Positions 8,481 to 61,352 of a stretch of 64,000 nt of DNA are shown here, piece by piece. Source of the DNA: Eledone cirrhosa. Lineage: Eukaryota. Position 1 is the first letter of the stretch; every line of letters starts with the position of its first letter. The translations under genes and the position numbers were made by a program. The stretch lies in contig OZ024743.1 in the NCBI GenBank assembly GCA_964016885.1, positions 168,578,001-168,642,000 of the forward strand, given 5' to 3'. The notes beneath the pieces were generated by a model. The model saw only the letters and a program-made list of their open reading frames with translations. It was not told the DNA's origin and made no database searches.

Positions 8481-8655
8481 AACGAAGGAAATGTGGTAAG
8501 GAACCAGGTGGACCATAACGCACCAAAGTACTCAATACTTGAGGTAGTAGAGTGGGTAATAGGAACCAGTAAGACCCCGACAGCTGAGCTCAAGCCGTTT
8601 CGACGGCTAATCGAAACGGCTTGAGCTCAGCTGTCGGGGTCTTACTGGTTCCTAT
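8481..8655 (-). mobile_element. Family A: putative PLE 3'-end fold-back (other copies 8413-8447, 9132-9295, 10379-10577, 32809-33001)
   Basis: Perfect 45-bp arms at 8559-8603 and 8611-8655; contains an HHR 3' half, GAAA-cggct..agccg-TC; flanked by (TA)n. Confidence 0.7.
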
Positions 8656-9604
8656 ATATATATATATATATATTTATATATATTTATATATATATATATG
8701 TTTATATATATTTATATATATATATATATATATTTATATATATATTTATATATATATATATTTATATATATTTATATATATATATATATTTATATATATA
8801 TATATATATATATTTATATATATTTATATATATATATATATTTTTATATATATATATATATATATATTTATATATATATATATTTATATATATATATATT
8901 TTTATATATATATATATATATTTATATATATATATTTTTATATATATATATATATATTTATATATATATATATATTTATATATATATATATATATATATA
9001 TATATTTATATATATATATATATTTATATATATATATATATATATATATATATTTATATATATATATATATATATATATTTATATATATATATATATTTA
9101 TATATATATATATATATATATATATATATATAGGAACAAGTAAGACCCCGACGGCTGAGCTCAAGCCGTTTCGACGGCTAATTCTGGACTGAATGAAAAT
9201 TTATTCTATTATCCTATTACCCACTCTACTACCCTAAGTATTGAGTACTTTGGTGCGTTATGGTCCACCTGGTTCCTTACCACATTTCCTTCGTTATATA
9301 TATATATATATATATATATATATATATATATATATATATTTATATATAAATATATATATATTTATATATATATAAATATATATATATATAAATATATATA
9401 TATATATATAAATATATATATATAAATATATATATATATATAAATATATAAATATATATATATATGAATATATATATATATATATAAATATATATATATA
9501 TAAATATACATATATATATATAAATATATATATATATATATATATATAAATATATATATATATATATATATATATATAAATATATATAAATATATATATA
9601 TAAA

Positions 9605-10075
9605 TATAAAATAAAGTTAAATAAAAGTCAAATGATTAAAATTTAGCTTCGTTTATTACTGCTATATATATTTCAGTGACAGCCATCTTTGGCTGTGACC
9701 TCTTCAGGTAGTTTGAATTAGTATGGTATAGACAAGTACATATGTTGTTTAGGTGTATAATATTGTCAATACTCTAATATGCCCAGTTCCCTGTTGGGTT
9801 GTTAATTCACTGAGGAACTGGAGTCATACACCTAAACAACATATGTACTTGTCTATACCATACTAATTCAAACTGCCTGAAGAGGTCACAGCCAAAGATG
9901 GCTGTCACTGAAATATATATAGCTGTAATAAACGAAGCTAAATTTTAATCATTTGACTTTTATTTAACTTTATTTTACACTACTCCGGAGTAACCAAACC
10001 AACCTGCGCACTTCGTCGAGTGCTCCAACCTGCATACTGAGGTATTGGTATACAGCCAACATAAACTCAAAATCT
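9605..10075 (+). mobile_element. Family B: PLE pLTR fold-back with an HHR on both arms
   Basis: Arms ~9608-9760 and 9826-9976; the right arm has a ~100-bp extra tail; second copy at 19143-19640. Confidence 0.8.
9872..9926 (+). ncRNA. Type I hammerhead ribozyme, family B (mirror copy 9658-9712, -)
   Basis: actgc CTGAAGA ggtcacagcc-aaagat-ggctgtcact GAAA tatata TA gctgt. Confidence 0.8.
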
Positions 10076-10756
10076 ATATATAAATATATATATATATAAA
10101 TATATATATAAATATATATATATATATATATATATATATATATATATATATATATATATATATATATATATATATATATATATATATATATATATATATA
10201 TATACTGCATACTGAGGTATTGGTATACAGCCAACATAAACTCAAAATCTATATATAAATATATATATATATAAATATATATATAAATATATATATATAT
10301 ATATATATATATATATATATATATATATATATATATATATATATATATATATATATATATATATATATATATATATATAACGAAGGAAGTGTGGTAAGGA
10401 ACCAAGTGGACCATAACACACCAGAGAGCTCGATACTTTGGGTAGTAGAGTGGGTAATAGGAAAAGAGTCAGAACCCCGACGGCTGAGCTCAAGCCGTTT
10501 CGACAGCTATTTCTGGACGCAGAAATAGCTGTCGAAATGGCTTGAGCTTTGTCGTCGGGGTTCTGACTCTTTTCCTGTAGATATATGTATGTATATATAA
10601 TATTAGAAATGGCAACTTTCGCCGTATTTTTGACAAAAGAAATATCGCTCGCTGTTTCAAAACATACTTACTAATAAACACCAACACATACATATATATA
10701 TATATATATATATATATATATATATATATATATATATATATATATATATATATATA

Positions 10757-12853
10757 TTGTTATACTTTGGGATTGTCATGTTGGCAATAGAAACACATGC
10801 ACCTGTTGGTTTTCACTTCAATTTATTATAAATTTCAGGTTGGTTGGTTGTTCGATAACCGGAAGGTTGTTAATATATTGTCAAAGTTCTTGTGTCACAA
10901 ATTCTGTGATCTCCTCAGTGACGAGGTTTTTATTTTGTGTCTCTCCTTTGTTCTGTCCTACACCATCTTGTTTTGTGTGTTGTGGGCTTAGTTTGCGCGT
11001 GCTTACATCCGCGAGTGTGCGTTTGCGTTTATTTTTTTATTTATGTGCTTATTTACTTGTCAATACTTGGTCGTTTGTTCTATCTGTGTGTGTCTGATGT
11101 GTTTTGTTTGTTTGGTTTTTGTGTGTGTATATCTTCATTTTGTCCTCAATTATGTGATGTTGCTATTCTACTCATGTTTTTTCTGTTTAATTTTGGTTGG
11201 TGTTCGTTTATGTTTGTCACCTCCGTGTTTTGTCTGAGCATTTCAACTTTTCTGTGTGTGGATATAATTTTGTTCTCTAATGCCCCTATGTTCTATTTTG
11301 GCAAGCTGGTGGAGTACTGATGAGTTTTTGCCATCCTGGAATTCTCGCCAGTGTTCACTTATTTTTTCTCCTATGCTACGGACTGTTTCACCTACGTATG
11401 TTATTCCTACACTGTTATTCCTACACTTCTTATTCCTACACTGTCCCTCAGTACATTTTATACTATGTACTACATTCCTAGTTTTGCAGTTAGTTTGCAG
11501 ACTATGCATTTCCTATCAGCACAAGGGGATCTTTGAAATGGGCATATTTTACTAATTTGTGGTTTTTATAGGAATATCTGGTCTTTCAACTATCTTAATA
11601 TTGAATTTGGGCTTGTCTAGGGCCCTTCTAAATCTGTAAGAAAGATCGCCTCTAGGGGTTGTATTGATGAACATTAGACTCAGGTATATATTACTATCAT
11701 ACCATGACTTTATTTTATTTGCCTTATTCGTAATACTTTCTATTCTGTTCCAAAATGTGCACATATACATAGGGCAAGTCCCATTTGCATTATTTTCTAT
11801 AATCTTTGCCCATTTGGTTCTGGATCCTTTATATACCCTGATCTTGTCTCTCTGATTGTATCCAGAGAAATGCATGCGGTGGATGAAGTGTGGTATGTGT
11901 CTCTCTAATTCTTGGGGTTGCGCATGCGGACACTTCCTCAATCAATGTGTTGATTTTTATGTTTCGGTGGATCAGGTTTTTAATGGTCATGAGTTTTGCA
12001 TAATTCGAATGGAGTATTTGCGTTCTATTGCTAATAGTTTCCAACCAGTGTTCTGTGTCTAGTACGGGGAATCTATGCCTGGGGGTGGTTATTGGGGTAG
12101 TCTATAGTAACTTTAATACTCTGGTGGATGGAGTTAGTTATTTGCTGGATGCTTTCCATGGTGTTCTTCTCTAATTCCTGACTGTTCTCCTGTGGGGGTG
12201 CTTTTACTGCGATATTTATGTCATCTACGTAGTGGGAGTACATAGTCAGGGTTATAAAATGTCGTCCAATTGTTTCTTACGTCTTCTGTCCCATCATACC
12301 ATAAAGAGGTTAGCTATGTCACTCGCAATACTAACGCCAATGGCTGCTCCCTCCTCTTGGGTATATGTTTTGTCATTAACCTTGAACATATGTTCCTTAG
12401 GGTTTGTTTGATACTGGCCCCCACTGCATGTGCGATCATTTCTGGGATCCGTAAGGTTCTGGTCCACCAGCTCCAACTTTCTGTGTGGGTCCTTTTGGCC
12501 ATTAAGGTAATGGTCGGTAGTCTACCTCTTTCTGGCCGTGTGGGGCAGAGGCTGCTGAGCTTATGTGTGTCTAAGTATTCCTTATTGTATGTGAGTTTAA
12601 GTAAGAGGCCCAGCTCTACTGGTATCGATCCAACGGAATTCCACATCCTCTTGCTGATCATTTCTATGCATTTTTCCACAACAACATCAACGTCGATGGA
12701 TGGGTATAGGGATACTACATCCATGCTACCTATTGTACAGCCTAACGGTCAGTAGACAGGCTGCATTCGTTGATTCTGCTGAGGAGGTCCTCCGTGCTGT
12801 CACATATAATCCGTGGTATTGATACCAGTGAGATGGGTCTCCTACTTAAACTC
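10757..12853 (-). mobile_element. Family C PLE: decayed RT + GIY-YIG, 5'-truncated, with a short inverted segment at 12808-12853
   Basis: MDVVSLYPSID, EGAAIGVSIA and TYVGETVRS motifs; aligns with 29586-32750. Confidence 0.9.
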
Positions 12854-12859
12854 AGGTCT

Positions 12860-60148: not shown

Positions 60149-60546
60149 TATATATATATATATATATATATATATATATATATATATATATATATATATA
60201 TATATATATATATATATATATATATATATATATATATATATATATATATATATATATACACAGTTCAAGAGTAACCAATCTTAAAGAGAGAGATGGAGAT
60301 AGGAGAGGAGATAGGAGAGGCGAGATTGGTGAATTAGTTAGAAGCCAAAGTGTAAAGGCATGTGCTCAATGTGCAATATGCAGTGGAAAGCAGCTAGGTG
60401 TCTGGGTTCATGAAGAAGTTAGGCGCTCAGAGCTGGAAATATTCATTAGGTAAACAAAACAAGACCACAAATTTCACAAGCAAGACATTATTAAAAGATT
60501 GTCAACATATTTTAATTTGATGTAAGTAATGTAGAGAATAATAATT

Positions 60547-60725
60547 GTTTCTACTTTAGGCACAAGGCCAGCAATTACCCAGTGCATTACTGGTACTTTA
60601 TTTTATCTACCCCGTAAGGATGAAAGGCAAAGTCAACCTCGGCGGGATTTGAACTCAGATCGTAAAGGGACGTAACTATGCTGGAAAGCATGGCGTCCGA
60701 CCCTCTCCCGATACTGTCAATCCAC
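60547..60725 (-). mobile_element. SINE with 10-bp TSD aataataatt
   Basis: TSD at 60537-60546 and 60726-60735. Confidence 0.88.
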
Positions 60726-60751
60726 AATAATAATTAATAATAATAATGGCC

Positions 60752-60870
60752 GTTTACAATTGTTTCGCTACTCCATATCATATTTCTGGATCAAATGACT
60801 ATATATCATTATTGATCTGGTTCAGTTGAAAATAATTAACATATTTAAAGACAGAGTGGCTCATCGGAAC
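60752..60870 (-). ncRNA. Hammerhead ribozyme with an ~80-nt stem II extension, next to a fold-back at 60882-60962
   Basis: Reverse complement: gtt CCGATGA gccactc..gagtagc GAAA caattg TA aac. Confidence 0.6.
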
Positions 60871-61046
60871 TTCAAAGGAATATAAATTAAAATAAGGAAA
60901 GAATGTTACATAATGTAATGTTCCATATATTGGTATGTAACATTCTTTATTTTAATTTATTTTAATATATATATATATATATATATATATATATATATAT
61001 ATATATATATATATATATATATATATATATATATATATATATATAT

Positions 61047-61352
61047 ATTAATAGCTTAGAGTTTAGACTCAGAGAGGTCATTTACAATCATTTCAGCTCT
61101 AGGAATTGCTTCTGAGCAGTATAAATTAATATTTGATGAACATTTACATGTTATAGTTGCAATTGACTAATAAGATCGCTACAGTGAAAAATCTTAATTC
61201 AACAACATAAGGTCTGCCTGTACGATCTAGAAAATAATAAATCAATACTCACAGACTCATATGGGCAAAAAGCCTTAAGATTTTTCACTCTAGCGATCTT
61301 ATTAGTCAATTGCAACTATAACATGTAAATGTTCATCAAATATTAATTTATA
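61047..61352 (-). mobile_element. Family Q fold-back with tail
   Basis: Arms 61120-61197 and 61275-61352; tail 61047-61119; flanked by (TA)n. Confidence 0.7.

Follow-up and report, generated by a model that had tools for sequence, protein, structure and literature searches.

How does a single retroelement insertion come to consist of two copies of its own 3' region, joined head to head and reading outwards? The question is raised by a window of 64,000 nucleotides of Eledone cirrhosa DNA (contig OZ024743.1, positions 168,578,001 to 168,642,000). According to the portions of three accounts considered here, EN+ PLEs carry an inverted, 5'-truncated head-to-head copy, a tail at one end and junction palindromes, and prefer (TA)n targets (PMC3846280, PMC8557442, PMC2377424); the layout is thus already published, and its novelty was overstated in the first-pass annotation. 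The origin of the inverted repeats and one-sided tail is called open (PMC11167929, and PMC8557442 in the portion considered). The published explanation found is self-priming on antisense RNA (PMC3846280).

Two-armed insertions in the window and the genome

All 17 coordinates first listed for the window contain two outward-reading arms of one family per site, the left arm reading leftwards and the right arm rightwards (Table 1). Arm-arm identity is 88-100% in the 13 short insertions that were aligned, and five Markov-resampled windows gave no inverted matches. One arm generally keeps the full terminus, as had been proposed. At 29613 the element end is missing from the left arm, which lies outside TA. 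The one-sided tail is mostly about 37-140 nt, with a maximum of about 290, and in the 13 aligned insertions mostly 37-136 nt; unlike these cases, the insertion at 40431 has additional sequence at both ends. Most arms overlap, but those at 9133 and 39884 abut. Location in (TA)n was scored for 20 insertions (the 17 listed and those at 7887, 40431 and 56369) as (TA)4 within 24 nt: it is found on at least one side in 20/20 and on both sides in 16/20, but on one side only at 19144, 23745 and 48533. Any target-site duplication would be masked by the (TA)n itself.

Table 1. Two-armed insertions in the window (strand in brackets)
Position	Element	Arms	Other features
7887..8188	older two-armed insertion		directly left of the range first annotated
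8482..8652	family A	left to terminus L, right to internal site M	80-nt tail; nested by ~6 nt
9133..9294	family A	left M; right L, beginning at M	arms abut, twin-priming-like
9603..10074	family B	M arm to putative +1; L arm begins ~70 nt inside	staggered; hammerheads 9663-9707 (-), 9877-9921 (+)
10380..10576	family A	L left, M right	both end close to putative +1
19144..19641	family B relative	two arms	right end outside TA
23745..24390	two-armed insertion	right arm ends in stem III TA run	left end outside TA
29613..32750	family G	925 bp, 97% identity; left arm without element end	RT and GIY-YIG-type coding sequence; hammerhead 32502-32537; 756-bp spacer belongs to left arm
32810..33000	family A	M left, L right	both end at putative +1; spacer 1 nt
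39884..40092	two-armed insertion	M arm abuts L arm consisting of tail only	hammerhead 39932-39981 (-) in M arm
40431..40781	older two-armed insertion		hammerhead 40485-40549 (-); absent from first list
40899..41086	two-armed insertion		104-nt tail, left side
42133..46753	4.6-kb insertion	left L with PLE ORF (-), right M	nested
48533..50440	two-armed insertion	left M, short right L	staggered; endonuclease-coding sequence 50241-49885 (-) in M arm; hammerhead 50259-50313 in L arm
51809..55425	two-armed insertion	left M, short right L	staggered; RT, thumb and endonuclease ORF pieces 53162-55178 (-) in M arm
55851..56206	family C	L left (66-nt tail), M right	both end at putative +1
56369..56741	two-armed insertion	56 bp, identical	224-nt spacer; 37-nt tail; absent from first list
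56878..57293	two-armed insertion		80-nt tail; hammerhead 57190-57239 (+)
57725..60147	family H	left M; right L of 309 nt	staggered; 511-aa RT + GIY-YIG frame 58259-59794 (-) in M arm; 45-nt tail on right arm
61049..61348	two-armed insertion		75-nt tail; 77-nt spacer

A 1.44-Mb genome sample contains 95 TA-bounded two-armed insertions in 39 sequence clusters; the architecture extends across the genome. The density of 66 per Mb extrapolates to roughly 2x10^5 natural two-armed products in the genome. Among family A loci the two-armed form is in the majority (35/51). Most copies lack an ORF and are short, at 160-500 bp; PLE palindromes of this kind are likely to be mislabelled as MITEs. MITEs or DNA transposons would be expected to show a fixed interior and symmetric TIRs, but here the junctions are not constant from copy to copy and the termini lack symmetry, and this identity was rejected.

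An assembly artefact, or an inverted duplication arising in the DNA itself at fragile (TA)n without retrotransposition, is very improbable: no read spanning the tested window insertion was among those listed, but the divergence between arms is 0-12% and its substitutions are age-like, most junctions occur in one copy alone, the inversion ends at element-specific sites (L and M, below) and excludes host flanks, and a family C head-to-head joint at another locus is present in the raw reads from two samples, 62 in one and 75 in the other, with a single start in each.

Identity of the elements

That the insertions are PLEs, as first proposed, is supported; an RT + GIY-YIG ORF, a pLTR at the ORF start and a minimal type I hammerhead were all found. 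The frame at 58259-59794 matches RVT_1 and GIY-YIG above Pfam cut-offs, and both domains are present in ~840-aa relatives; this single-ORF result was obtained outside families B, C and 4. Family A long arms adjoin upstream endonuclease-coding sequence at four loci (L089, L090, L098 and C3a 62120). At one locus, L052, the family A terminus runs on into a frame starting MRKHIIDFSSTKNIP, which places the pLTR at the ORF start; we take this start to resemble PLE N-termini. The C-terminal endonuclease with its Cys-rich linker resembles that of Neptune/Nematis; the order is not that of Naiad.

A pattern scan of the 95 cases found 21 outward and no inward hammerhead motifs, and the window holds ten; Rfam at gathering score found no hammerhead. 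The palindromic stem III is kept downstream of the putative +1 (the likely transcription start) in all four mapped families. A long stem II was considered as a joining device and discarded, as it gave no pattern matches and long copies carry a different stem II.

Start and stop sites of the arms

Arm ends were mapped in 144 copies of four families (A, B, C and 4). Arms start at a terminal site, L, or an internal site, M, both fixed and specific to each family. The pairing is L+M in 114 copies, L+L in three and M+M in seven (124 classifiable; 20/144 unclassified). Unselected blocks gave 38, one and three respectively, with 8/50 unclassified (p=3e-8 against 0.5). Immediately past M there is a TA match of at least 2 nt in 41/57 cases, against 8.3% in the control, and in 19/27 clusters.

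The joined ends had been described as 5' truncations, but frequently they lie at a fixed site rather than a random one. Both arms stop at the putative +1 in 70/144 copies, some with an extra G. To judge from its motifs, this site is likely where capped transcripts from the pLTR promoter begin. The non-genomic G ahead of +1 occurs on L and M arms alike, although 6/14 extra G bases in family A could come from the opposite arm. Arms are staggered in 14/144, non-overlapping in 17/144 and nested in 15/144. In 31/144 either the two arms show no overlap or the shorter one extends further towards 5', so both arms were likely copied from RNA. Junction palindromes are common; some joins are blunt between two complete +1 ends and others are 4-nt self-complementary.

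Two other origins of the junctions were rejected. Inheritance from a palindromic master does not fit, as junctions mostly differ between copies, with some recurring at self-complementary +1 sites. A 3' splice site as hot spot fails because the upstream exon is not constant and the AG is missing in family B.

A proposed origin: one RNA copied twice

That both ends of the target cut prime is likely, and is supported by the L+M pairing, the 5' stop site, the staggered or non-overlapping arms and the matching of subfamily and template type (below). It is likewise likely that the cDNAs are joined head to head, given the staggered and non-overlapping arms, the extra G on both arm types and the blunt or 4-nt self-complementary joins. 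With double priming supported, our preferred reading (probability about 0.55) is that both (TA)n ends prime within a single pLTR of a single RNA, at L for one end and at M for the other. A protein dimer would cut both strands with its GIY-YIG domains. The trailing RT would displace the M-primed cDNA, an activity that is predicted, and the RNA would have to stay intact; to our knowledge PLE RT has no RNase H. The cDNAs would then be joined by NHEJ or microhomology. If the trailing RT stalled at M, the result would be abutting arms like those of L1 twin priming. The stops of five family A long arms fall in positions 53-62, around M at 60, against 1.25 expected (p=0.009, for an interval picked post hoc). 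The template was uncleaved, because the arms run through the hammerhead cleavage site.

The first-pass annotation allowed either two RNAs or two rounds of copying. Two rounds on one RNA fit best; two RNAs, taken together an unlikely second choice, leave the L+M rule and the matched template type unexplained. The latter was examined in 15 family A loci chosen for one arm extending upstream of +1 with a visible partner: the partner also runs upstream in 11/15, stops at +1 in 1/15 and stops downstream in 3/15, while only 19/155 arms in unselected blocks extend upstream. Both arms are of the same subfamily in 26/28 classifiable pairs (shuffle mean 3.6). One RNA and two sibling RNAs of one source locus are not separable by sequence, and bursts from single loci would likewise give matched subfamily and template type.

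Two RNAs on a protein dimer, one per subunit and mostly from one source locus, with stem III unneeded, are the less improbable two-RNA version. The same 5' end on both arms would then need no displacement, and L1 cDNAs of two RNAs are joined in opposite orientation, if rarely (PMC11702581). Head-to-head neighbours are of the same family in 255/261 cases, which speaks against it; of the other six only L095 looks real on inspection. There, flanked by TA arrays, a B-like M arm meets an L arm of family C, a plausible cross-family join, although later insertion plus deletion could also produce it. L095 plausibly, and L259 weakly through arms discordant at two shared-haplotype sites, point to occasional two-RNA events. 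A two-site arm difference in family A, first taken as a two-template sign, was rejected as a bias from retrieving copies through a rare word in the query, as unselected blocks showed; a similar A/C site in family C carries the same bias and was not used.

Slightly more doubtful is fold-back or self-priming, in which the L-primed cDNA folds on itself, is copied back to M and anneals there to the TA target, and later deletions at the palindrome centre yield spacers and stagger. It is akin to the idea in PMC3846280 (in the part considered) and accounts together for L+M pairing, variants shared by the arms and matched template type; the junction palindromes and nested arms suit it too. However, each staggered or non-overlapping copy needs a second event, and blunt +1/+1 or 4-nt self-complementary joins leave no loop. 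The extra G is found on M arms whose L arm is shorter (C2a 68864, C1a 35715) and on lone M arms in TA (C1b 127411, L283), and in vitro the RT starts at M-type sites (PMC11167929).

Less probable still is the model first put forward, in which the palindromic hammerhead stem III holds two RNAs as templates. PLE minimal hammerheads are thought to act as dimers (PMC4209133), the palindrome is conserved as noted, and homodimers fold 9-21 kcal/mol below two monomers, a weak figure as it stands without a shuffled control. Under a symmetric dimer the expected pairing is L+L, M+M or random, and a 5'-3' pLTR dimer within one transcript predicts a +1-stop arm with a long arm, the combination seen once in 15. 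No clear cross-subfamily chimera occurs among family A subfamilies despite near-identical stems III, L095 joins unlike ones, and in family A an RNA that starts at the putative +1 leaves out the ribozyme core's 5' half. Nothing found supports the stem III dimer. Equally doubtful is its most novel form, in which PLE integration would by default be two-ended first-strand synthesis and the ribozyme fold would pair templates for a protein dimer rather than cut.

Comparison with known systems

If one RNA is indeed primed twice, a long-unexplained PLE layout would be explained. Arms that arise together could also date insertions by their divergence, like LTR pairs, if conversion is low.

The insertions share with the inverted pLTRs of EN+ PLEs the head-to-head copy, one-end tail, junction palindromes, (TA)n preference and also TATA and Inr motifs in the pLTR; the published tails are 30-40 nt, shorter than most of those here. 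Neither an L+M rule nor a +1 stop bearing an extra G nor a match in template type is described in the portions of these accounts considered (PMC3846280, PMC8557442, PMC2377424); these features appear to be new.

Dimeric minimal hammerheads of PLEs have the same type I motif and palindromic helix III in the pLTR, but the dimer was proposed for self-cleavage (PMC4209133), whereas the arms here cross the cleavage site. In L1 twin priming, too, the second end primes internally by microhomology and the cDNAs are end-joined, with an extra G at full-length ends. The arms of L1 meet to within 1-10 bp, and their internal site is variable (PMC11702581), whereas here the second site is fixed, most arms overlap (17/144 do not) and the two-armed form is in the majority.

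A close experimental system is the Poseidon_Ac protein, a predicted dimer that cuts and extends both strands in vitro by TPRT, with hammerhead cleavage unneeded (PMC11167929); this favours the preferred reading. Two internal RT start sites bound the tail and the target is AT-rich, as here. The inverted product was not derived there, and priming was reported without primer-RNA homology, whereas M here shows TA microhomology (41/57), a point against the preferred reading. The L+M pairing, +1 stop and matched template type are sharp rules, directly testable in this existing in vitro system.

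Two-armed insertions in the window

A masked self-comparison of the window finds head-to-head inverted arms at all 17 sites where the first-pass annotation had described outward-reading, two-armed insertions, and at three more; five resampled windows, used as a control, gave no inverted hits. TA flanks both sides of 16 of the 20 insertions. The annotation also held that the arms overlap and that typically one of them keeps the full terminus. At two sites the arms abut without overlap, and at one the element end is missing from an arm.

One insertion encodes RVT_1 and GIY-YIG in a single frame. 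Four other large insertions contain pieces of RT or endonuclease, always with the outward-reading strand as coding strand. Among named relatives, one from Octopus bimaculoides comes closest to the window RT, at 63% identity, so that the host is probably an octopod. Minimal hammerheads among 95 elements face outward in 21 cases and inward in none. Endonuclease-coding DNA precedes family A arms, and the arm in one sampled locus, L052, runs on into the ORF start. These insertions are EN+ Penelope-like elements (PLEs). In families A and C (loci L072-L100 and L261-L290), the hammerhead core reads TTGAAAA where CTGATGA is expected; the stems and palindromic stem III are retained despite this, and by their sequence these hammerheads are possibly inactive.

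Neighbouring repeats and element remnants in the window
Feature	Position	Remark
Dispersed repeat, ~190 bp	4630-4834; 15201-15357; 16966-17162; 43210-43434; 60537-60737; 61591-61735	Resembles a tRNA-derived SINE
Decayed LINE-type frames, AP-endonuclease domains	25542-27531; 33604-36564; 36739-39930	Adjoined by the family A insertion at 32810 and the insertion at 39884
Family B element end and its TA array, tandemly duplicated, ~175 bp	10030-10379	
Lone piece of family A terminus	8412-8447	

Frequency in the genome

Seven sampled blocks of the 3.0-Gb assembly, 1,444 kb in all, contain 198 adjacent inverted hits before de-duplication; the total counts in the window (G000:C4:168578001-168642000) and a 200-kb block of satellite. 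(TA)4 is touched by 118 of these, against 3% of 2,267 random positions. De-duplication leaves 95 TA-bounded elements in 39 clusters, and 35 of 51 family A loci are two-armed by hand count. The first challenge that the annotation had set itself, that copies might be mostly single-armed or TA-free, therefore does not refute it.

The satellite block (G000:C2:250000001-250200000, L181-L200) has neither TA arrays nor PLE palindromes; the 60 kb of it analysed with TRF consist of a 25-28-bp satellite that forms higher-order units of ~180-240 bp. In L256-L258, L259-L260 and L217-L218, insertions recur together with their flanks and were thus duplicated later, in tandem or as segments. The junction of L217 is found again in L220, between different flanks.

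Arm end points

Families A, B, C and 4 yielded 145 adjacent two-armed copies, one of them a duplicate, and end points were mapped in the remaining 144 against natural reference copies. The copies were drawn from the blocks and from similarity-search loci, the latter biased to query-like copies. Every mapped family has one terminal start site, L, and one internal, M. Arms pair as L+M in 114 copies, L+L in 3 and M+M in 7, with 20 unclassified; the blocks alone give 38, 1, 3 and 8. In the blocks L+M exceeds independent choice, which has a ceiling of 50% L+M (p=3e-8). Directly beyond M, a match to the TA array of 2 nt or more is present in 41 of 57 alignable elements; among control positions the share is 8.3%. 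Single arms terminate at L or at M.

In 70 of the 144, the inner ends of the two arms fall between -8 and +12 of a common site. The others are nested (15), staggered (14), non-overlapping (17), symmetric elsewhere (10), both L (3) or without an L arm (15). The stop site is a pyrimidine-purine step. Read against the promoter consensus, a TATA-like motif lies about 28-30 nt upstream in families A, C and 4; none was found upstream of the family B site. Once four hits that on visual inspection belong to other elements are removed, the family A arms ending here with a non-genomic preceding base carry G in 14 cases and A in one, and a genomic T or C precedes the site in 21 further arms; six of the 14 G bases could derive from the other arm. 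A further two, one and four extra G come from families B, C and 4, respectively. In L1 an extra G marks cap copying, according to PMC11702581. The inner stop probably represents run-off at a capped transcription start (+1).

Family A junctions vary, from joins with short microhomology to joins with short patch insertions. In L052 (reverse strand ~680-1290), the junction of a family A copy zigzags through several short inversions; the ORF start follows, and after it a tandem M arm. The whole reads as multiple template switches within one insertion.

Templates and mechanism

We favour, at a probability of roughly 0.55, a reading in which a single pLTR on a single RNA is the template for priming from both target ends. 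One end would prime at L and the other at M, the trailing RT would displace the first cDNA or stall at M, and the two cDNAs would be end-joined. Double priming as such, whatever the number of templates, is probable.

Of 67 family A pairs, 28 can be classified; in 26 of these both arms belong to the same subfamily, and the two mismatched pairs differ by one base each. Discordance at informative sites is 13/295 in family B, 38/202 in C and 21/313 in family 4 (shuffled means 0.20, 0.34 and 0.37). Such concordance could also be raised by inter-arm conversion, successive subfamily bursts or single-locus bursts. Arms extending upstream of +1, only 19 of 155 in the blocks, must have been copied from a downstream pLTR copy or read-through RNA. 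In 15 family A loci chosen for one such arm with a visible partner (27 kept), the partner also runs upstream in 11, ends at +1 in one and downstream in three. In the pooled count both arms run upstream in 17 pairs and both end at +1 in 76, with 4 pairs mixed; 57 pairs with a downstream arm are omitted, and selection inflates the pooled test.

Two RNAs as templates, without a part for stem III, are an unlikely alternative, to which two loci lend weight against a single RNA. In L095 (1915-2355), a perfect M+M palindrome centred inside the hammerhead lies beside a B-like M arm that is joined head to head to a family C L arm, an L+M pair made up of two families. L259 is a weaker case, a possible chimera. 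A fold-back whose centre was deleted later is somewhat less likely still. The first-pass annotation had proposed double priming on two RNA templates or in two rounds of copying, with an RNA dimer held by stem III as a possible source of both templates. Its double priming is retained, and the dimer becomes improbable, as the end points move weight to one RNA copied twice. An artefact is hardly credible.

Relation to known elements

A derivation of PLE inverted ends from double priming was not found in the accessible parts of the literature searched (PMC11167929, PMC3846280, PMC8557442, PMC2377424, PMC4209133, PMC13282606, PMC11702581 and bioRxiv 10.64898/2026.07.22.740005 among it, but not some central subscription-only work on the structure of Penelope), and novelty is claimed for this point within that literature. 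The arm end points make the mechanism of PLE insertion testable. The two-armed architecture itself is real, present in very high copy number, and ordinary for PLEs.
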